This document shows positions 637 through 11,300 of a stretch of DNA of 11,300 nucleotides, in pieces. The stretch lies in IMG/VR virus record IMGVR_UViG_2778261544_000008. The stretch is one strand, 5' to 3'. The notes under the pieces were generated by a model that searched no databases, was not told where the DNA came from, and saw only the letters and a list, made by a program, of their open reading frames with translations. A program made the position numbers and the translations under genes. The stretch comes from a virus (lineage: Duplodnaviria > Heunggongvirae > Uroviricota > Caudoviricetes). Within the stretch, counting starts at the first letter, position 1; each line of letters starts with the position of its first letter.

Positions 637-1908
637 CTATTCTTTCCAGTCAATCCCATCCAGTAAGCACCCTGCCTCATATTGCCCCACCACCCAGTCA
701 AGGTTACAGGACTCATAGAACGCGAGGCGATTATACTGAGGCTCGTTTTTTACCAGGCCACGAACGGAACCACGCTGCCAGTACAGACACAGATTGGCAA
801 GAGGTGTGATCAATACAGCATTGTCCGGGAAAAATGGAACGGTCACAGCCGGGAGATTCCCCAGAACGGGATTTTTAATGATTTCCTCGTTAAGCAAAAT
901 TTCCTGATTCATCTGCGATGGATCAAGACGGTTTATCAAAGGCCATTGCTTACGGACCAGCGTATTGTGACTGCATACGGCCACAATGCCTTCCTGCCAC
1001 TGTTCATCAATCATGGATTGCCAGGCATCCAGAACGAGCGCATCTATCGTATGGTGTGTACCGCGTGTATTACTTTTCGGTGATGAAACAGAAAGGCCGC
1101 TGATAACCCTTCCCGCCGCTTCATTTCGAAACTTCTGCAACCAACCCACGCCGCAATCGTCACGCCCCGGATATGTTTCAGGGTCAGATTCGGCGGCATA
1201 ATGTGTGCCGTTAAAACCAATCTGAATTAAATCCAGCCATTTCCGGCGTTCAAAAGCGGCCCGCGCACTTCCTTCAAGGCCGTTTGCGGATGCGTGAGCA
1301 TCGGCATTGTCGTAGCTCAACGCAAAATCAAAATTAACCTGCTCGCAGCGGTAGCCCCTTGAAACCAGTGAATGCGCCTGTAGTGGCGAACGGCGCTCGT
1401 GAGGTGGCGATGTGCGTGCCAACGGCCCCGAAGCGTCTACCAGCACAACCCGACCTGATATATCCGTAACAGGCACGGGAGTTATTTCAGCAAGGAAATT
1501 TGCCTGCCATCCACTGGCAAGCGTTGCACTCTGGCGGGGAACGGGTTCAACTTCTGACGAATAGCGCGCAGTGTCACCGGAAAAGTGCAAATCCTTCGGA
1601 TGTTTTCCGGTTATCGACTCGATAGCGCAATTGAAAACCATCTGAGCCTGTTGATTTCGTTGTGATACAACAGAATCAGCAGTGCAATTATAACGCTCAA
1701 TGCCGTCGTTATTACCCCCACCGCTTGCAGTATGCAGGGTGTGAAGCTCAAGCTCACGCTCCAGTTTTTGATATTCATTGTCCAGCGCGCGACGCGTCTC
1801 ATCGCTTATGCTTGCTGTGTTTGCTTTCAGGCGATTCCGGGACATTAATCCCCTGAGTCGGCTCACTATATCAGCGCCGTGCAAATGTGGAGTATTCAGA
1901 CCGCCCAT
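637..1908 (-). CDS. Major capsid protein, P2 gpN-like; start codon uncertain
   Basis: Several blocks match my recollection of P2 gpN: CEQVNFDF, IGFNG, VGWLQKFRNEAAGRVIS, IDALVLDA, LGNLPAVTVPFFPDNAVLITPLANL, YESCNLDWVVGQYEAGCL. The homologous region begins near the ATG at 1641-1639. The frame is open up to 2085. An ATG at 1908-1906 overlaps the upstream ORF's stop as TAATG. Confidence 0.75.
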   Translation of the reverse strand: MGGLNTPHLHGADIVSRLRGLMSRNRLKANTASISDETRRALDNEYQKLERELELHTLHTASGGGNNDGIERYNCTADSVVSQRNQQAQMVFNCAIESITGKHPKDLHFSGDTARYSSEVEPVPRQSATLASGWQANFLAEITPVPVTDISGRVVLVDASGPLARTSPPHERRSPLQAHSLVSRGYRCEQVNFDFALSYDNADAHASANGLEGSARAAFERRKWLDLIQIGFNGTHYAAESDPETYPGRDDCGVGWLQKFRNEAAGRVISGLSVSSPKSNTRGTHHTIDALVLDAWQSMIDEQWQEGIVAVCSHNTLVRKQWPLINRLDPSQMNQEILLNEEIIKNPVLGNLPAVTVPFFPDNAVLITPLANLCLYWQRGSVRGLVKNEPQYNRLAFYESCNLDWVVGQYEAGCLLDGIDWKE

Positions 1909-2618
1909 TACTGCCACCCCCGGCAGAGTTCTCTGCCCTCCGCAAGGTCGCGCATTTTTTCTGGATTCTGTCGCGCCGCGCTCCATTGTACAGGTGAAGG
2001 GGCGTTCCTGATTGCGCGGCTTACCGAATCCGGGAGTTTCTCCGGGCAATAACGCAGCGGGCTGGAGGTGTCGCTTTCGGTATCGTTAATCCGGCCGCGA
2101 ATCATCCCGACACTTTCAGCAGTATCTGTCGCTTTCAGTGTTTCGCATATTTTCTTTTCTGCGTTATACAGCGGCTGGCCAAGCAGCTCACATAAACCAC
2201 GAATCAATAACAGAGCAGGGGTCAGCTCGTTAATCAGTTCGGGAAGTGCTTTTGCAAATATCTCTGCCCGCAACTTATTATCAATGCTTTCGTAAGCACA
2301 ACCAGCCTCTGCCGCGTTATAACGACACTCCAGTAGCCTGATGCGCGCCTCATCATGCAGCACCCGCAGACGCTCAAGATTTTCTCGCGCCACACCCGCC
2401 TGAATGGATAATTTCGCGGAGGCTTCCGTTTTTACGCCCAGCGCAGACAGGATTGAGTTCTGCCAGTCACGATCGAGAGATTCCAGCTCCCCTTTCGTCT
2501 GTTCGATAGTTGCTTCCAGATTGGTGATTAATGATTCCTGTTCACTGAGTTTTGCCATGGCTGCATCAAACTGTGCTTTACATACCTGATGTTCGGCGCT
2601 TGCCTGAGTTATATCCAT
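1908..2618 (-). CDS. Helical or coiled-coil protein, candidate capsid scaffold (Sid/gpO-like role)
   Basis: 236-aa ORF with a good SD (CAGGAGcaaatATG). The N-terminal two thirds are heptad-like and helical. It lies immediately upstream of, and overlaps, the capsid gene. Its last ~45 codons overlap the capsid-frame ORF and look low-complexity. Confidence 0.5.
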   Translation of the reverse strand: MDITQASAEHQVCKAQFDAAMAKLSEQESLITNLEATIEQTKGELESLDRDWQNSILSALGVKTEASAKLSIQAGVARENLERLRVLHDEARIRLLECRYNAAEAGCAYESIDNKLRAEIFAKALPELINELTPALLLIRGLCELLGQPLYNAEKKICETLKATDTAESVGMIRGRINDTESDTSSPLRYCPEKLPDSVSRAIRNAPSPVQWSAARQNPEKMRDLAEGRELCRGWQ

Positions 2619-3067: not shown

Positions 3068-3250
3068 CTATGAAGTTTTCGACTTCCTGCGCTTAGTAAT
3101 GCGTACAAACGACTCAAGCGTACAAAAACAAGCCCCACACTCAATATTATTGCACTGGTAATACGTTCTGTAGATGTTTTGTTCGTGTTCTTCCAACGAA
3201 CGACCACGGGTGCGGGCTGAAGCGCCACAGGCCGGGCAAGGGAAAGACAT
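3068..3250 (-). CDS. ogr: Ogr/Delta-family zinc-finger late-gene transcription activator
   Basis: 60-aa ORF MSFPCPACGASARTRGRS...YYQCNNIECGACFCTLESF. The C-x2-C-x22-C-x4-C spacing and flanking residues match P2 Ogr (MFHCPLC...HQCQNVNCSATFITYES). SD GAGGAG lies upstream. Confidence 0.85.
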   Translation of the reverse strand: MSFPCPACGASARTRGRSLEEHEQNIYRTYYQCNNIECGACFCTLESFVRITKRRKSKTS

Positions 3251-3613
3251 ATCACGCTCCTCTTACTGGTGTGAAATTTAACCTATTATATCTTCTGCCG
3301 CCCCCCTCTGGCTGTATCAAATAAACCCGCAGCAGTCGCCGCGTATTACGCACGGGCGCGCCGTTCCCATGCTCACTCGTCACATTCCCCGTATCAGTTC
3401 TCTCTTGCCGTAAGAACGGCTCTGGCTGGCGATAAAACTAACCCGGTCGGGGCATTCCCGCAGCCTTTAGCGAAAATGTAATTTACCCCCTGAAACGCGT
3501 GCTGTTCCCCCGTCACCTGCGCGCGAAAAACTCACCGTTTTTTGTGCACGCACGAAATCGCCCTCCGGGCGCGCCAGTACTTGGCCGGATGGGCAAAAAG
3601 TTACTCTAAAAAA

Positions 3614-3643
3614 TTGTGCAAATTTGTGCACTTTTGTGCAGAT
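3614..3643. repeat. Three direct TTGTGCA repeats at exact 10-bp phasing
   Basis: TTGTGCAAAT / TTGTGCACTT / TTGTGCAGAT starting at 3614, 3624 and 3634, in non-coding DNA upstream of the Ogr-like gene. Confidence 0.5.
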
Positions 3644-3862
3644 GAACAATAGCGTCAAAAAGAGTGCTTTTGAGAAATTTTTTATGGCAACTGCGCCGCG
3701 TGTATTACGTTTTTTACCATCCCCGCCGCGCATGTACATGCTTCATTTTTCTGCCAAACAACAGGGCAACTCCCCGTGACTGGCAGCCCCAAAAAATCAA
3801 TGATTGATATTGCATTTTTGTTAGAGGTTAGACCAGTTGTTTTGAGGCTCTGCCTCATAATC

Positions 3863-4185
3863 CGGTGGGGGGTGCGCAAAGCGGTTACAACGGTTACAAC
3901 AGTCAAAAACACCACTTAACAGCATGATTTTAATGGATATTGTTTGTAACCGCTTTGCGGTTACACTGCGGTTACAACGGTTACAGGTTTCAGAAAGTTA
4001 TTTATTATCAATCAGTTAAAAACTTAACTTGTAACCGCCTGTAACCTAACAAAACGGTTACATGTAACCGCGTTGTAACCGCTTTTGTAACTCATCGGAC
4101 CAGCTGCAATGTATTGATATATAATATAAAAATGAGTAATTTTAAATTTGTAACCGTTGTAACCGCTTTGCGCAACCCCCCCCGG
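3863..4185. repeat. Iteron array (TGTAACCG/CGGTTACA) with flanking inverted repeat; putative replication origin
   Basis: At least 13 full copies of the 8-mer in ~285 bp. The left half is mostly CGGTTACA, the right half mostly TGTAACCG, around an AT-rich centre. Outer arms 3874-3899 and 4148-4173 are exact reverse complements (26 bp). Embedded palindromes GTAACCGCtttGCGGTTAC and CGGTTACATGTAACCG. An AT-rich stretch lies at 4100-4150. Confidence 0.55.
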
Positions 4186-4380
4186 ACTTTAGCGCGACCC
4201 TTTAAAATGTTAATTAAACTAACTTATTCCGTCTCACTTTCATTAACTCTCTGTAATTGAAATGTGCCTCGCCACTGTTTGACCCTTTCTGATAATCAGG
4301 GGAGGGAGAGCAAAAAAAATTGATGGCGACACCGCTGCAATATGGCCACCATTGCATTGCTGTTACCGTTGGTTCTGGCC

Positions 4381-4408
4381 AACAAAAAAGGCCAGTGGAA
4401 AACTGACC
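4381..4408 (-). terminator. Probable rho-independent terminator downstream of the integrase gene
   Basis: On the minus strand: 7-bp stem GGUCAGU / ACUGGCC (one G-U pair), 5-nt loop, then UUUUUUGUU. About 30 nt after the int stop. Confidence 0.45.
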
Positions 4409-4438
4409 TCTTTTGCTGTGAATGTGGCGTTCTGCGGG

Positions 4439-5440
4439 TTACTCTGCTGGTTCTTTTTGTTCAGTGAATGCTATGTTAGCTATCGGGTTAAACCTCATGG
4501 CATCTGCCAGATAGTCGGGAGAAAAATGCGCATAAGTCATCGTTTGCTGAATAGTGGCATGGCCCAGAATCCGTTGCAGGGTAACGATGTTTCCCCCGTT
4601 CATCATGAAATGCGTGGCGAACGTATGACGCATCACATGAGTCGCCTGCCCTTTTGGCAAATCAGGCTTCACCTCCTGGAGGATCTCGCGAAACCGGAGA
4701 TAATCGACCTCGTACAGCGGCCCAGTTCGGCAGGTTTTAATCAGCGAGAGCACGGCATCAGACACCGGAACCGAACGGGACTTCCCGTTCTTGGTGTTGA
4801 AGAACGTCACGCGATTACCGACGATATGCTCCCCGCGTAATTCCGTCGCCTCACCCCACCGCGCCCCCGTGGAGAGACACAGAATGGCGACACGACGCGC
4901 ATCACCTTCGAGTCGCTCAAGAAGCCGCTCAATCTCATCATCAGAAAGAAAGGCCATCTCTGTATTCTGAATTTTTAGCTTACGTATACTGCGCACGGGG
5001 TTCGGGTTGTGAAAGACCCCTGCTTCAATCAACACCGTGAACATGGTAGACAGAACGCATAAGTCACGATTAATACTGGACGGCATTAATCCGGCCTGTA
5101 ATTTCTCTGACCGATACTCAAGCATAAATTTTCGCGTCATCTGGTTGGCGCGCGGATCTCCCATTTCACGAATCACTTTCTCCAGCCGGATCCTGTAGGT
5201 ATCGCCGTAAGCCTGATTACACCCGTCAAGCATCCACCATGTATCAAGCAACTCTGATAATCGCCGCCGATCAGCAGGTTTAGCTAGCCATGGGTTATTA
5301 TGGAAATTCTGCAAAACATATTGTTCGAACTTCTCTGCACTTCCTTTCCTGGTAAAAATTTTACGTATCCGTTTGCCGTATGTCCCTTGCGGCCTGATAT
5401 CTAGCAACCATCTTCCATCATCCATCTTTCTGATCGACAT
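4439..5440 (-). CDS. int: Tyrosine recombinase, P2-type integrase
   Basis: Strong similarity along the whole length to my recollection of P2 Int (MSIRKMDDGRWLLDIRPQG..., ILCLSTGARWGEA, ATHVMRHTFATHF, LQRILGHATIQQTMTYAHF, giving the catalytic R, H-x-x-R and Y). Start taken at ATG 5440 (SD AAGGAG upstream), not the upstream in-frame ATG at 5476. Confidence 0.9.
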   Translation of the reverse strand: MSIRKMDDGRWLLDIRPQGTYGKRIRKIFTRKGSAEKFEQYVLQNFHNNPWLAKPADRRRLSELLDTWWMLDGCNQAYGDTYRIRLEKVIREMGDPRANQMTRKFMLEYRSEKLQAGLMPSSINRDLCVLSTMFTVLIEAGVFHNPNPVRSIRKLKIQNTEMAFLSDDEIERLLERLEGDARRVAILCLSTGARWGEATELRGEHIVGNRVTFFNTKNGKSRSVPVSDAVLSLIKTCRTGPLYEVDYLRFREILQEVKPDLPKGQATHVMRHTFATHFMMNGGNIVTLQRILGHATIQQTMTYAHFSPDYLADAMRFNPIANIAFTEQKEPAE

Positions 5441-5442
5441 AC

Positions 5443-8112
5443 TTAAGATCTCTCCTTGTAACTGAATATCCGGCATTTCAGCACTTCCGGCTCTCTGGCC
5501 TCGGCTACTCCTTTTCCGGCGTTTGCCTGTCTGGACACCTCACTACGAATGGTTTTGCGGCCTGTCAAAGGTCGGGAACGCCCGGCTCCGAGCAGCTCAA
5601 TCATTTCGCGATCTGTTCTGATCTCCACGCGGTGAATGGCGGCAGCCTGTGCCAGTTGCGGAATGCTGATAGCAATCCCTTCGCGGCATCCCTTGCCGTA
5701 GTGGTTTACGCCGTATTTTGTTATGCCGTCCAGGAAGTCGAACGCCTCCCAGAACTCCGTCACTTCCGGCAAGTCAGCCGCCGCCGCTTTAACCTGCGCT
5801 GTTGCCATTTGTTCCAGTTCCAGACATGTGGCATCAAGCCATTCATCCGGGATATCAATAACGCATTTCAGCGCCCTGACCAGCGCGATAAGTTGTGCGT
5901 GATTTTTGGCGATGCGGGGATGGCGAATATTTTCGCATCCGCAAAGGCGTTCCGTTTCAGCTGGCGACACTTCCAGGAACGTTTGCATAATCGCCCGTTC
6001 CTGACTTACCGCCCGGTGAATAAAACCCGATACCTTCTCGACGGGGTAGAGTTCCAGCCGTCTCGCCGCCAGTCGGGTATCTGGTGAATGGCGTTTTTTA
6101 TCGGTGTATATGCGTATCAGGCGCTCAATAATTGCCGGTGAGGCGTTTACCCGCGCATTCTGTGCAATCACGATAGCGCCCTTAAAATCCGGATCATAGG
6201 TGTTGTTATTGTTGGCCTTAACACCACGAACACCGATACCGCCGCCGTTATAGAGGCTTTTCAGGTTATCGAAATCAAACGCACCTCTTTTTTGCGCATT
6301 GTCTCCCCGGTCTGCTTCAATCAGAACAACAGGCAATCCGGCGACCTGTCCAAAGGTGCGCTTCCAGCCCGCTTCTGATCCTTTGGTTGGATCAACGCCT
6401 TCGTAGTTGTCACGACCGCACAGCCGCCAGCAAAAATCAATCAATGTTGATTTACCCGTTCCGGGTTCCCCAGTGACTTCAAGGAAAGGGAAGGATTCTT
6501 CTTTATCCCGGATTTGTTCACTGAACAGCGACCCCAGCCAGAAAGCCAGGGTAATAATTCCCTTTTCGCCAAAAGCCAGCCAGAGATCTTCTACCCATGA
6601 CGTTGTAAATTCATCCGTTTTTTTGTAGTTAATCTGTAATGTGGGTTTTTCGCTTAATGGTTTTGCGTTTATGCCATCAATTTCAAAATAATCTTCGTCA
6701 TTGATTTCATAAGTTTTACCCTTGTAAACAGCAATATCATTAAACAGCCATGCCCCAATGGCCTTGTTGTATCCGATAAAATCCTGACCAATAACCTCTT
6801 TTATTGCAGGAAGGTCATTTTTTATTAATGCGTCAAGCTGCGTAGTCGTTCCGGTATAAATGCCGCCTTTTGCTACGTGCAACAGACGTTTTTTAAATTC
6901 AGATGCGGATGTTAATTGCCCTGATGTAAAGGTGTTTTTCACCGTAGCACCATCCGGGAATGTAATGCGGAAGTAATACCATGCTTCATCCGTATCATTG
7001 TTTCGAATGTAATAAAGCGGCACTGGGTTACAGTTTGCGATTTCTTTTACAGCGCCGGATTCCTTGAGTGCAATTTTGCGCGCTTCATCTTCGTCAACAT
7101 TTCGCTCATTAATGACACGCTCAACAGCCTTCATATGGCGCTCAATATCCAGCTTGAACCAGAAAACACGGTTATCAAAGGGAAAATGAAATTCCTTTCG
7201 CTCACGAAAGGAAAACATTATTAGTGCCTTATCTCGTGGAGATTTCGCCAGCAATAAATCACCGTAATAACGGTATCTTTTCACATCATGGCCACGCAGC
7301 TTTCCGGCGACGTGTAAATCATTCCAGTCGCGTTTATTGTTGTTTTTCCCTGGTAACGCCGCTGCCGTTCTCCAGCCGTCTTCGGCGCTGCGTTCTGCAT
7401 GTTTTTTCGCGTAACGCTCACCTGCACGCCCGTTATCCAGCGCCCACACGATAACCGGACGGGGATTATCCCCGCACAGCTTCGCCAGCTCTTCCAGCGC
7501 CTTATCAGGGTAGTTCACGGCAGACATGACAGAAACGGCCGCAATGCCATTCTGGTTAAGACTGATGGCATCAAAGATACCCTCACAAATCCAGATTTCT
7601 TTGGCCTTGCTTAAATCTGCTCCTGGATAAGCCCACCACAGCCCCTTGTAGCTGCCGGAAAAATTCGCCTTGCGTCCGAAGCGTTCCGGGCGATCTATGA
7701 TTCGCTCCCACCACACACCGTCAGCCAGCGTAAAACGCACAGTAGCGGCCTGTTCGCCGCTTTCCTTGTCCTGGTATCGCTCCTGGGTAAATGCTCCCCT
7801 CAGTGGCTCCACAGCAATATTGCGTGCTTCCTGAAGATAAGCTGCCGCCGCTGCGTATGGTTCATCTTTCGTACTGATATAGCGATCTGACCATGATGAA
7901 AACACATCCGGGTAAAGTTCTTTAGTCAGCAGGTCTACACCGCATTTATTTTCACGCCCGCAGTGTACGATGTACGGCCTTTCAAGGCTGGTAAACAACT
8001 CTTTCTTTCCACATTGCGGACAAACACCATACCGGAGGTAGTTATTTTCTTCTTTAAAGTTGTAATCACGAATAAGACGGTTAATAATCTCTTTTCTGGT
8101 GTTATGTTTCAT
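5443..8112 (-). CDS. Primase-helicase, P4 alpha-like (zinc ribbon + TOPRIM primase + P-loop helicase)
   Basis: N-terminal zinc-binding CPQCGKK...HCGRENKC, a TOPRIM-like segment EIWICEGIFDAISL...WALDNGRAG, and Walker A VTGEPGTGKST with a downstream VVLIEAD. ATG at 8112 is preferred; an in-frame GTG at 8130 is possible. The stop is 2 nt before the int start. Confidence 0.9.
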   Translation of the reverse strand: MKHNTRKEIINRLIRDYNFKEENNYLRYGVCPQCGKKELFTSLERPYIVHCGRENKCGVDLLTKELYPDVFSSWSDRYISTKDEPYAAAAAYLQEARNIAVEPLRGAFTQERYQDKESGEQAATVRFTLADGVWWERIIDRPERFGRKANFSGSYKGLWWAYPGADLSKAKEIWICEGIFDAISLNQNGIAAVSVMSAVNYPDKALEELAKLCGDNPRPVIVWALDNGRAGERYAKKHAERSAEDGWRTAAALPGKNNNKRDWNDLHVAGKLRGHDVKRYRYYGDLLLAKSPRDKALIMFSFRERKEFHFPFDNRVFWFKLDIERHMKAVERVINERNVDEDEARKIALKESGAVKEIANCNPVPLYYIRNNDTDEAWYYFRITFPDGATVKNTFTSGQLTSASEFKKRLLHVAKGGIYTGTTTQLDALIKNDLPAIKEVIGQDFIGYNKAIGAWLFNDIAVYKGKTYEINDEDYFEIDGINAKPLSEKPTLQINYKKTDEFTTSWVEDLWLAFGEKGIITLAFWLGSLFSEQIRDKEESFPFLEVTGEPGTGKSTLIDFCWRLCGRDNYEGVDPTKGSEAGWKRTFGQVAGLPVVLIEADRGDNAQKRGAFDFDNLKSLYNGGGIGVRGVKANNNNTYDPDFKGAIVIAQNARVNASPAIIERLIRIYTDKKRHSPDTRLAARRLELYPVEKVSGFIHRAVSQERAIMQTFLEVSPAETERLCGCENIRHPRIAKNHAQLIALVRALKCVIDIPDEWLDATCLELEQMATAQVKAAAADLPEVTEFWEAFDFLDGITKYGVNHYGKGCREGIAISIPQLAQAAAIHRVEIRTDREMIELLGAGRSRPLTGRKTIRSEVSRQANAGKGVAEAREPEVLKCRIFSYKERS

Positions 8113-8155: not shown

Positions 8156-8461
8156 TTAATTACTCGTTACTTCTTGTTCCCGGGCAATCCCTGCTGCTTC
8201 AGCCTGACGCCATGAAAAAATGCCGCCAGAAAGATGCATACCTGATTTTATTGATTGTAATTCCCGATAAATAATATTAGACAGAGATGTAATATCTTTA
8301 TTGGTAATTTCTGCACCCGCTCCGCAGCTTCTTTCATCAAACATGATAGACATAATGTTGACGAGATTAATTACATCCGTGAGATCTTCTTTTGCATCCT
8401 CTGTAAAAAAACCAACATACTCTTTATGTAAAAGATTTGCGTAATTCTGATTTTCAGACAT
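8156..8461 (-). CDS. Hypothetical protein, 101 aa, AT-rich
   Basis: ORF with SD GGGGAG and 5-nt spacing. Most of the gene is visibly more AT-rich than the flanking genes. No recognisable motif. Confidence 0.5.
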   Translation of the reverse strand: MSENQNYANLLHKEYVGFFTEDAKEDLTDVINLVNIMSIMFDERSCGAGAEITNKDITSLSNIIYRELQSIKSGMHLSGGIFSWRQAEAAGIAREQEVTSN

Positions 8462-9283: not shown

Positions 9284-9535
9284 TTTGGCGGCTCCTCTAA
9301 CTGATTTACGGAGTCTCGCCAGCACGCTGCTAAACATGGTGGCGGGACGTAACAGGGTTAGCAGACTGGCGTTAGAGAAACCAGCGAGCGCAAAGGCTCC
9401 CCCATTACGCCCCGCCATAATACGGGGTAGGGTGGAATTACGGGCACAAAAAAACCGCATTACGGAAATATAGCGGCTACCCGCTCTAACAATCAGGCTG
9501 CTAAACCCGGCACCTGTTTTATGAGGTGCGGGCAA

Positions 9536-9831: not shown

Positions 9832-10152
9832 TTATTCAACTCTGGCGCTACCGGATTCCCTCTCCCTTTTCTTTTTGGCGTTTTCGTATGGGTTATTCAC
9901 TTTGGCAATAACTGGCGGATTACGCAGCCACCACAAAACATCACTTAACAGCCAGGTACATGAGCAACGCCCCAAAGAGTGACGGGGAGGAAAAGCACCG
10001 ATCTTCTCCAGTTCCCAGCGCCGGGAGCGTGAAAGCGTGGTCATCTTTTTACACTTCTCTTCCCTGATGCGTTCTTCGCAGTCAAAACCATACTCGGCGA
10101 GTATGGTGCGGCGCTGTTCTGGAGTTGGTGGAATGAATGCGGATTGAGTCAT
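9832..10152 (-). CDS. alpA: AlpA/Vis-family DNA-binding regulator (excisionase-like HTH)
   Basis: 106-aa ORF with SD GGGGGA. The central segment LSRSRRWELEKIGAFPPRHSLGRCSCTWLLSDVLWWL fits the AlpA/Vis pattern (LSRST-YR...G-FP-...LG-R-V-W...V--W). Confidence 0.6.
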   Translation of the reverse strand: MTQSAFIPPTPEQRRTILAEYGFDCEERIREEKCKKMTTLSRSRRWELEKIGAFPPRHSLGRCSCTWLLSDVLWWLRNPPVIAKVNNPYENAKKKRERESGSARVE

Positions 10153-10247: not shown

Positions 10248-11300
10248 TTACTGAGATGATGCCTTAATCCATCTTGATATAGTACTTTTATCAAAGCGCA
10301 TATTGAGTCCTGCCTCTCTTGCTTCCGCGGTCAATATATCAGCAAGTTTTACCGGATTGTTTTCGAGTTCTTTATAATGAATAACAAGCATCGCACGAAA
10401 AAAATCCTTCATTGTTTTAGATAATCGTTCTATATTGTTTTTATTGGTGCATATATCTTTCTCCCCATCCTCAGAACTTAATATATTGTTACCCGCACGC
10501 AAATATAAAGTATCTGCCAATGGACTAACATAATCTTTTCTTAACTCGCTATTGGAGTTTGTAGCATTTTGTATTTTTAAAAAATCATTCTTTAAGATAT
10601 ATAAATCACCAATATCAAAAGAAACATCCTCAGTAACAATTACTCCTATATGTATATCAACGTCAGAAGCAATTATAATATTGCTATTAATTATTCGGTT
10701 GGCTTTAAACTTCTTATTAAAATCATAGTTGGCAAAAAAACTTCCCCCCAAAGCGAAAATGCCGCCTATTTCAACAAAATACTTATGGTATTTTTCTTGA
10801 ATACCTTTAAATACTGGTGGTACAACTGCCACACCTCTTTCATCCGTTGCTATTCGATATACACTATATATGTGATAATTTTCCCCATAATATAACCCCC
10901 TGTTATAATAATTTAACAAAGCAAATGCAGTATCAATTGCTATGTCACCAAATTTGGGCGCTACATATGAATGGCTTAGAGATTCACACATTGAATCAAA
11001 TATAATTCTCGACTTGTTTTTTATATAATTAAAACCATGGTGTTCTGCCGCCCTTTCTGAAATGGCATCAAGGTCAGATAACCGTGATTTACATGGTTCT
11101 GAATCCATAAACTTACGCAGACAATCGAAATTAACCACATCTTTTTCATCTGGGATATTTAATACTCCATATGCAGATTCAATTTTTATACAAATACGAA
11201 TGCAGCCTGTCACAGCCCAATGAATAAGATCATCAATATCGCAGTCTAATAACTTTGCCGCGCGCTCAATAGGATAGTAATCTCTTAGTGGTAACGTCAT
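10248..11300 (-). CDS. Hypothetical protein, 350 aa, strongly AT-rich cargo gene with HTH-like termini
   Basis: Uninterrupted 1053-nt ORF whose ATG is the last three bases of the window. Composition is far more AT-rich than the neighbouring alpA and primase genes. The N-terminus (IERAAKLLDCDIDDLIHWAVTG) and C-terminus (LADILTAEAREAGLNMRFDKSTISRWIK) look HTH-like. The central domain is unrecognised. Confidence 0.65.
   Translation of the reverse strand: MTLPLRDYYPIERAAKLLDCDIDDLIHWAVTGCIRICIKIESAYGVLNIPDEKDVVNFDCLRKFMDSEPCKSRLSDLDAISERAAEHHGFNYIKNKSRIIFDSMCESLSHSYVAPKFGDIAIDTAFALLNYYNRGLYYGENYHIYSVYRIATDERGVAVVPPVFKGIQEKYHKYFVEIGGIFALGGSFFANYDFNKKFKANRIINSNIIIASDVDIHIGVIVTEDVSFDIGDLYILKNDFLKIQNATNSNSELRKDYVSPLADTLYLRAGNNILSSEDGEKDICTNKNNIERLSKTMKDFFRAMLVIHYKELENNPVKLADILTAEAREAGLNMRFDKSTISRWIKASSQ

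Follow-up and report, generated by a model that had tools for sequence, protein, structure and literature searches.

A P2-type integrase gene immediately downstream of the primase gene in a satellite of P88-like phages

Introduction

The DNA considered here is the IMG/VR virus record IMGVR_UViG_2778261544_000008 (Caudoviricetes), a stretch of 11,300 nucleotides (nt) that was analysed as a whole and is referred to below as the window. It raises a simple question, namely, what a P2-type integrase, Int, does when its gene directly follows that of a primase-helicase on the same strand, and whether this is the enzyme that inserts the element into the bacterial chromosome. As argued below, Int is very likely not the integrase of the element in which it lies, and the reading tentatively favoured for it is an action in trans on the attachment (att) sites of a helper phage.

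Nearly all of the main genes of the window are encoded on the minus strand, except for a mazEF-like pair and one small open reading frame (ORF), and the near-complete collinearity described in a first-pass annotation of this DNA is therefore upheld. Read from the right end, the minus strand carries a cargo ORF, an AlpA/Vis-like gene, an 'Icd-like' ORF and four small ORFs, the last of which is ORF101; these are followed leftward by the primase-helicase gene, the integrase gene (int), 1.2 kb without convincing genes, an Ogr/Delta-like gene, a 236-aa ORF and a capsid homologue. The same annotation had pointed out that this layout, with a P2-family integrase embedded in what reads as the primase operon, is unlike those of both P2 and P4, and this still stands.

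The Satellite and Its Family

On the evidence of its anatomy, which is assigned with high confidence, the window corresponds to the greater part of a satellite of P88-like (Xuanwuvirus) P2-type phages. It aligns to Escherichia coli chromosomes over its full length with 92.5% identity, and the complete island, as found in the copies inserted at hpt, measures ~12,950 bp, so that the window represents most of ~12.9 kb. Domain and PHROG scans limited the P2-like parts of the island to the capsid homologue, ogr, Int and the cohesive-end (cos) region. A P2-like prophage, complete or degraded, was also considered and rejected, given that there is no GpQ–GpL head operon, no tail genes and no C/Cox switch.

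The compact architecture of 11–13 kb is kept across genera, and members of the family were found in Escherichia, Yersinia and metagenomes, with Int-less relatives in Salmonella. Modules are mixed within the family: the insertion site is either hpt or tRNA-Arg, the Int alleles range from A to D, and the capsid gene lies at the left end in some members and between alpA and icd in others. The close IMG/VR matches, which bear identifiers in the style of isolate genomes, were read as provirus calls and not as proof of encapsidation, while a 12.6-kb Logan contig has 15-nt identical ends formed by a tRNA-like fragment, which is consistent with att repeats and is not proof of a circle. The first-pass annotation had allowed that this gene order might prove typical of an already described satellite family. 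It is indeed typical of the whole family, but no description of this family, or of its second integrase, was found in the accessible literature, where absence is not proof.

The Primase–Integrase Junction

The primase gene ends with a TAA at positions 5443–5445, which is followed by GT (5441–5442) and then by the ATG of int at 5440, all on the minus strand and read directly from the sequence. An AGGAG lies upstream of the start codon of int, and the RefSeq annotation of relatives gives matching junction coordinates. Since a spacer of 2 nt leaves no room for a promoter or a terminator, the primase and Int genes would form one operon, in which Int is probably translationally coupled to the primase.

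The junction was present in all 27 close relatives examined, with spacings from −4 to +22 nt. It is exactly 2 nt in 18 further loci (eight annotated E. coli and Yersinia loci and ten IMG/VR loci), those named beside the window being L001, L004, L005, L007, L011, L021 (Yersinia) and L025. In L010 (strain PEC240), the spacing is −4 nt, that is, the primase and int overlap by 4 nt, and it increases to 15 nt in L028 and 22 nt in L020, both of which are metagenomic loci with primases only 60–61% identical. Given this conservation across relatives, the junction is best read as a real, selected arrangement and not as a product of chance. A P2-type Int was found within 9–10 kb of the primase in 0 of the 17 distant primase homologues checked, and because neither these homologues nor the phage primases have a P2-type Int nearby, the junction appears to be specific to the satellite lineage.

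Identity and Integrity of the Internal Integrase

Int (4439–5440, minus strand; 333 aa, allele A) is a P2-family tyrosine recombinase that consists of an Int_N domain (PF24624, 2.1e-28) and a Phage_integrase domain (PF00589, 2.3e-19), the same architecture as that of the Int of the UTI89 phage. It shares 54.3% identity with P2 Int over residues 1–325 (98% of its length) and 85% with the Int of vB_EcoM-569R5, a P88-like prophage, and the initial description of a P2-type Int 2 nt after the primase stop on the same strand is thus borne out. A grouping with P4-type integrases, which would have spoken against that description, was not seen, as Int showed no significant similarity to P4 Int.

The catalytic residues R194, K217, H268, R271, H294 and Y303 are invariant across the island and phage sequences, and none of the 27 Int-bearing loci has a disrupted ORF. 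The ratio of nonsynonymous to synonymous substitution rates (dN/dS) of int is 0.07–0.10 at dS values up to 0.63 (for example, 0.07 at a dS of 0.58), as low as that of the primase. Judged from these features, Int is under purifying selection and is predicted to be functional. Moreover, since in the Salmonella relatives L023 and L029 the primase is present but the internal Int is missing, the latter is a dispensable, accessory component of the family.

These observations bear on the improbable alternative that Int is a relic or a hitch-hiker, either left over from a P2-like ancestor or passively exposed to gene conversion from co-resident P2-like prophages, and that it serves no function itself. 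Such an origin would suit the fact that the capsid protein, ogr, cos, primase and Int are all closest to P2-like phages, as well as the dispensability of Int in the Salmonella relatives, but it accords poorly with an ORF that is intact wherever Int is borne, with catalytic residues that do not vary, with dN/dS values like those of the primase, and with a 2-nt coupling that is strictly kept.

Allele Swapping and ORF101

Int and ORF101 (8156–8461, minus strand), the latter located directly upstream of the primase gene, are the two hypervariable genes in a conserved backbone. Thus, in E. coli islands whose other proteins are 95–100% identical, Int is only 51–58% identical and ORF101 35–76%. Alleles A/A2, B, C and D and those of L020, L021 and L028 share 43–58% mutual identity, with primases that are 60–99% identical, and at least seven Int alleles occupy the slot. 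The breakpoints obtained by comparing the window with L004 delimit a swapped block of approximately residues 18–257 (4670–5390, minus strand), which spans the arm-binding and core-binding domains, both presumed to contact DNA, and the first half of the catalytic domain; outside this block, codons 1–17, the final 77 codons and the entire downstream DNA remain island-type.

A comparison of eight A-class with seven B-class islands gave 43 positions that are fixed for different nucleotides, and these are confined to int and its immediate flanks, to ORF101 (15 of the 43, at 8240–8405) and to the single position 4312. The latter is the sole A/B-fixed position of the noncoding gap, the rest of its origin and cos sequence having none, and no such position was found in the primase body beyond 5595. 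Because of this distribution, ORF101, at its centre, and Int, the two variable genes that flank the primase, are considered to be linked, and no site that matches the Int allele is apparent in cis.

ORF101 occupies the position of epsilon (Pfam 'Derepression') in L028 and L029. Homology to P4 epsilon was nevertheless rejected after a BLASTP E value of 0.11, no alignment to the L028 homologue and an hhalign probability of 0.3%. A single-sequence structure model of ORF101 was unusable, with a predicted local distance difference test (pLDDT) score of 47.8.

The Terminal Integrase and the Insertion Site

All full-length relatives encode, at the end of the island just past window position 11300, a further integrase, which has the architecture of P4 Int. 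It comprises 399–403 aa in NCTC9082, KD602, P15-25 and A36, where the island lies between hpt and gcd, and it contains Arm-DNA-bind_3 and Phage_integrase domains, as in P4 Int, to which it is 53% identical in L005 and 22% in L001. That the island of the window has the same kind of terminal integrase is inferred from its right-end gene, which is 97–98% identical to those of L001 and L004.

At the hpt site, the island is bordered by a 24-bp imperfect repeat with 13 bp exact (CATTACTTCTACA), and ATTGATACAC arm motifs are paired at both ends. The gcd side keeps the native first eight codons of hpt (MKHTVEVM), while the replacement 5′ end supplied by the island reads MKHYVEVM. In L001, with borders at 11715–11738 and 24667–24690, the insertion falls within hpt codons 5–8 and provides a new 5′ end and upstream region; the island thereby alters residue 4 of Hpt from Thr to Tyr, and the native start persists as a remnant beside gcd.

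In TOE17 and PEC240, the island is located at tRNA-Arg and has another terminal integrase (53% identical to P4 Int), other arm repeats and a different AlpA, yet it retains the primase–Int junction and the origin region. The terminal integrase, the two att arms and the AlpA-like gene therefore switch together with the chromosomal site, while the Int–primase pair stays. Since it is the terminal module that changes with the site, this module, and not the internal Int, would set the site of insertion. The AlpA/Vis-like gene of the window (9832–10152, minus strand; PF05930, phrog_2790 at 4.6e-30), which encodes a predicted excisionase and regulator, belongs to this terminal module.

The internal Int, by contrast, seems to have neither a cognate phage attachment site (attP) nor an allele-matched site in the island. 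In the phages of the UTI89 type, attP consists of the core AAAGCGCCTGCGGGCGCTTT with GTCCAT arm repeats; neither this core, at up to 5 mismatches, nor the arm motif was found in whole islands. No tRNA was found in the window and no P2-type att core in the gap at 3250–4440, so that the corresponding statement of the first-pass annotation stands as far as these sites are concerned, but the gap is not empty, as it holds a candidate iteron origin and cos. The view that Int is the element's own integrase, with an unrecognised att site in 3250–4440, might be taken from the window by itself, in which Int is the only integrase and no tRNA is present. It becomes very improbable once the terminal integrase and the att repeats just outside the window are considered, as these switch with the site while the internal Int stays, and the gap is taken up by the origin and cos. 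The assignment of Int as the integrase of the element, as first made, has thus been abandoned.

A related proposal is that Int is part of a second integration module, which would insert the satellite at an alternative site through an unrecognised attP and would provide it with two independent integrases. Int is complete, including its arm-binding N-terminus, allele swapping is a usual phage route to a new integration site, and weak arm-like motifs occur at 4341 (GTGGCCATA) and 3683 (GTTGCCATA). Furthermore, P4 itself carries attP between alpha and a downstream int in the same orientation; it had been stated initially that P4 encodes Int away from alpha, and this has to be corrected, as P4 int lies ~0.7 kb downstream on the same strand, after a terminator, the cis replication region (crr) and attP. 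A second module is, nevertheless, unlikely. All of the islands examined are contiguous across the gap and are located at hpt or tRNA-Arg with a terminal integrase, none of 56 full-gap copies is split in the gap, a donor-type core is absent, and the sequence downstream of Int does not change along with the allele even though the swapped block carries the DNA-binding domains.

A Candidate Replication Origin Beyond int

About 250 nt beyond Int, the gap contains an iteron array (3861–4186) with 13 copies of GGTTACA in both orientations, whereas 1.15 copies would be expected in the whole window. The array is bounded by 39-nt inverted repeats (3861–3899 and 4148–4186) around an A+T-rich core. These repeats are 95% complementary, and they consist of the iterons that also make up the interior. 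The iterons are kept in Yersinia (L021) and slightly altered to GGTTACT beside a primase that is 61% identical, and in the Int-less Salmonella locus L023 a 104-nt iteron-like segment with 74% identity is found downstream of the primase. The layout resembles the annotated ori/crr repeats of P4, although the iteron sequence differs from that of P4 (TGTTCACC), and no iterons were obvious near the primase of the phage ESSI2_ev239. From this arrangement, the array is read as a candidate replication origin for the primase.

The location of Int between the primase and this array, and its expression with the replication genes, could point to a housekeeping role in replication, in which Int would resolve multimers of the satellite into monomer circles, the form packaged by the P2 terminase, or act at or near the origin. 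Resolving recombinases of this kind are known from plasmids and phage P1. This role is quite unlikely for Int, as L023 and L029 have retained the primase without Int, L023 together with the iteron-like segment, and as alleles that are only 43–58% identical share an origin region that is 88–100% identical, with no allele-matched site.

The inverted repeats adjoin a tyrosine recombinase gene and are nearly perfect complements, which would also be expected if Int were a DNA invertase that flips the 248-bp segment between them as a switch. However, all 56 full-length copies in complete genomes are collinear, with no inverted form, the repeats are the same iterons as those of the interior, and the array is present without Int in L023, so that such a switch is hardly credible.

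The cos Region and the Helper

The gap also contains a cos region (3475–3640), which includes GGTGACGGGGGAACAGCAC and three TGCACAA-type repeats. It is 80% identical to the portal-proximal intergenic region of the P2-like prophage of UTI89 and 76–82% identical to the sequence across the genome ends of phage P88_4B11, and such a portal-proximal or genome-end region is the position of cos in P2-like phages (PMC9122126). A P4-type cos was rejected, as nothing significant was obtained in an alignment to the cos region of P4. Approximately 420 other E. coli genomes have the island-type cos segment. Among the genomes with an island, 20 of 56 contain an extra cos-type locus, compared with a background of ~7.7% (Fisher p = 4e-9, uncorrected for clonality). 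Because of the homology of cos and this excess of extra copies, cos is read as a copy of that of the P88-like/Xuanwuvirus clade, which is therefore the helper clade.

Two further features of this region may be mentioned. The three TGCACAA-type repeats, at 3610–3650 with a spacing of ~10 bp, are kept in the cos of both island and helper and may be a terminase-binding element. Several RefSeq genomes have a 90-aa 'hypothetical protein' at 3467–3739 (minus strand), which overlaps the cos homology, is unannotated in the helper prophage and is probably spurious.

A Possible Action of Int on Helper Attachment Sites

The Int alleles resemble those of helper phages. Allele A shares 83–86% identity with the Int of prophages of the UTI89/569R5 type, and allele B shares 82% with the Ints of P88_4B11, Chuche and PhiR44_2. 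The cos region copied by the island is present in both helper types, that of UTI89 and that of P88_4B11. The C repressors of the two types are 42% identical, and C and int are adjacent in these phages. In addition, a second A-type int was found in 8 of 21 allele-A genomes, against a background of ~5.4%.

From the helper-like alleles, the shared cos, a hypervariability like that of specificity genes and the linkage with ORF101, it can be suggested that the internal Int acts in trans on the att sites of the helper, a reading that is favoured tentatively and given somewhat less than an even chance. Int would be made only once the replication operon of the satellite is on, and would then target, in trans, the attachment sites of a helper present as either phage or prophage. 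In this way, it might promote or otherwise control the excision or integration of the helper, perhaps to the benefit of the satellite. P2 prophages, when derepressed, excise poorly since Int is limiting. An extension of the proposal, possible but doubtful, is that Int and ORF101 constitute a helper-specificity cassette that tracks the C–int module of the helper and drives or blocks its excision or integration.

Several points weigh against an action on the helper. No direct sequence trace of Int acting on helper sites was seen, and P4 itself has no need for helper excision, so that any benefit to the satellite is speculative. The identity to helper Ints is only 82–86%, and the first ~17 residues of Int, which are part of the presumed arm-binding domain, as well as its C-terminal tail, are island-specific; therefore, the specificity of Int may have shifted from that of the helper type. 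Allele B had no close non-island relative in a megablast search of 5,426 complete E. coli genomes, so that a match of this allele to a resident helper would be conjectural. Allele C is paired with an A-like ORF101, which makes the linkage of both genes imperfect. Finally, the co-occurrence counts for cos and int ignore clonality, and the second copies are only presumed to be P2-like prophages.

The Primase-Helicase

The primase-helicase (5443–8112, minus strand; 889 aa) has an N-terminal Cys4 zinc finger, a TOPRIM domain (Pfam Toprim_2/Toprim_3) and a Walker A motif, 'GEPGTGKS', and matches phrog_1139 over its full length (E = 3.6e-298). Its full-length relatives, at 41–52% identity, are the proteins of phiCTX (orf37, 41.6%), Ralstonia phage RSY1 and Escherichia phage ESSI2_ev239 (51.5%), and the same type of primase also occurs in the genuine P2-like prophages L030 and L031, from Providencia and Salmonella.

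The first-pass annotation had taken this protein for a primase of the P4 alpha type, an assignment that has to be replaced. In BLASTP against P4 alpha, only 27 aa around the Walker A motif and 123 aa of the TOPRIM domain (30% identity) align, P4 is not among the 40 phage matches of the primase, and P4 alpha belongs to phrog_2249. Moreover, whereas P4 alpha matches all five of the Pfam families Zn_Ribbon_Prim, Toprim_3, D5_N, DUF5906 and Pox_D5, the primase of the window matches Toprim families only, plus DUF5906 below the cutoff; TIGR01613 gave no match to it at E ≤ 1e-3 and scored 108.7 bits, at the cutoff, with P4 alpha. By these comparisons, the primase is of the phiCTX/ESSI2 type of some P2-like phages and not a member of the P4 alpha family.

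Comparison with Known Satellites and Phages

P4-like satellites have a core set of int, alpA/vis, CI RNA, epsilon, alpha, sid, delta and psu. Their published definition uses seven components, and the types A–C have five or more of these, with two or fewer missing (PMC8628076). The island has three of the seven, namely, the terminal P4-type integrase, alpA/vis and delta/ogr, and should therefore fall outside this definition. No ORF of the window matched sid or psu in PHROG, an epsilon homologue was not detected, and the primase is not alpha.

The likeness to P4 is, nevertheless, considerable. It includes the size of ~12–13 kb, the terminal integrase of P4 architecture, AlpA/Vis, Ogr/Delta, a cos of the helper type, an iteron origin and a C4-type CI RNA inside the Icd-like ORF, as well as a leftward operon that ends in a primase-helicase and is followed by iterons and an integrase gene on the same strand. 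The island differs from P4 in that, beyond the absence of alpha and of detectable sid, psu and epsilon in the window, it has a P2-type capsid gene instead, its post-primase integrase is of the P2 type, lacks attP and is additional to the terminal one, and its late genes are collinear with the early operon and not divergent from it.

As regards the phages, Int resembles the P2/P88-like Ints of the UTI89 prophage at serS–dmsA and of P88_4B11 in its length, its two Pfam domains and its catalytic residues. In those phages, however, int comes after the C repressor gene and is adjacent to attP, whereas the upstream neighbour of the island int is the primase gene. Similarly, phiCTX, RSY1 and ESSI2_ev239, which have a primase of the same PHROG in place of GpA, differ from the island in that their Int, like that of the prophages L030 and L031, is at the canonical C–int position, 2–3 kb away and on the other strand.

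The order int–alpA–…–primase from one end of the island is also that of phage-inducible chromosomal islands (PICI), and the capsid-forming PICI (cfPICI) of Gram-negative bacteria carry their own capsid gene, as does this satellite. Unlike in PICI and cfPICI, the immunity region, cos, Ogr and capsid protein of the island are of P4 or P2 type and, unlike in cfPICI, there is only a capsid gene and one unassigned ORF in place of a full head module. Taken from its gene content, the element would work like a P4-type satellite with a P2-phage primase, a P2-type capsid gene and an extra Int.

Other Genes of the Island

The late region contains an Ogr/Delta-like zinc-finger activator of late genes (3068–3250, minus strand; 60 aa, single domain), assigned through phrog_603, NF007241 and RefSeq relatives. 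Beyond it lie a 236-aa ORF (1908–2618, minus strand), which precedes the capsid gene and to which no family was assigned, and a homologue of the P2-family major capsid protein (637–1908, minus strand; 423 aa, PF05125 at 3.3e-72). As phrog_70 matches residues 119–422 of the latter, it has an N-terminal extension of ~118 aa; TIGR01551 scored below its cutoff. In other members, the capsid gene encodes 335–350 aa and is located elsewhere in the island.

Immunity RNAs of the P4/P1 type were detected with Rfam at 9335–9529 (minus strand), a C4 antisense RNA at 9335–9422 (72.9 bits; gathering score 45) and an isrK-like RNA at 9448–9529 (52.2 bits; gathering score 50). Both lie inside the ORF annotated as 'host cell division inhibitor Icd-like' (NF033153), as in the P4 immunity region, and the annotation of an Icd-like protein may thus be in part that of an RNA locus. 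A 36-nt segment of this region (9494–9529, the isrK/C4-target-like part) matches positions 31259–31294 of P88_4B11 (L027) at 92%, on the coding strand of an early gene annotated as 'transcriptional regulator', and may represent a shared target of a C4-type immunity RNA.

At the right end, a low-GC (~32%) cargo gene (10248–11300, minus strand; 350 aa), recognised by its composition, adjoins the terminal integrase outside the window, which is the position of the known P4 defence hotspot. It is variable (26% identity in L007 from P15-25, compared with the 97–98% given above for L001 and L004) and had no match in Pfam, PHROG or PADLOC. At the left end of the island, a MazE/MazF-like toxin–antitoxin pair is encoded on the plus strand (1–593; PemK_toxin at 4.3e-25, and RefSeq), for which PADLOC gave no defence annotation; in the other layout (L011, L021 and L025), a Hok/Gef toxin takes its place.

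In L021, from Yersinia enterocolitica, a second element (17146–22673) directly adjoins the island, and the two satellites are apparently in tandem. This second element encodes Ogr/Delta, an integrase built like that of P4 and a primase with Zn_Ribbon_Prim/Toprim_3/DUF927 domains, and it also contains an AIPR gene.

Implications

The family combines integration and immunity of the P4 type with a primase, a capsid gene, Ogr and cos from P2 phages. With only three of the seven P4 components, it should escape the P4-like definition, and the number of satellites counted in Enterobacterales may be an underestimate. Moreover, an 'orphan' integrase such as Int can mislead the prediction of att sites and of element boundaries.

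Satellites are known to hijack the capsids, the packaging and the repressors of their helpers. To our knowledge, no satellite-encoded copy of a helper's integrase has been described, and we know of no other satellite described as manipulating the excision or integration of its helper through an integrase. If Int does act on the att sites of the helper, this would account for Int and ORF101 being the sole fast-swapping genes of a conserved backbone, and control of helper excision or integration would be a new lever in the conflict between satellites and their helpers.

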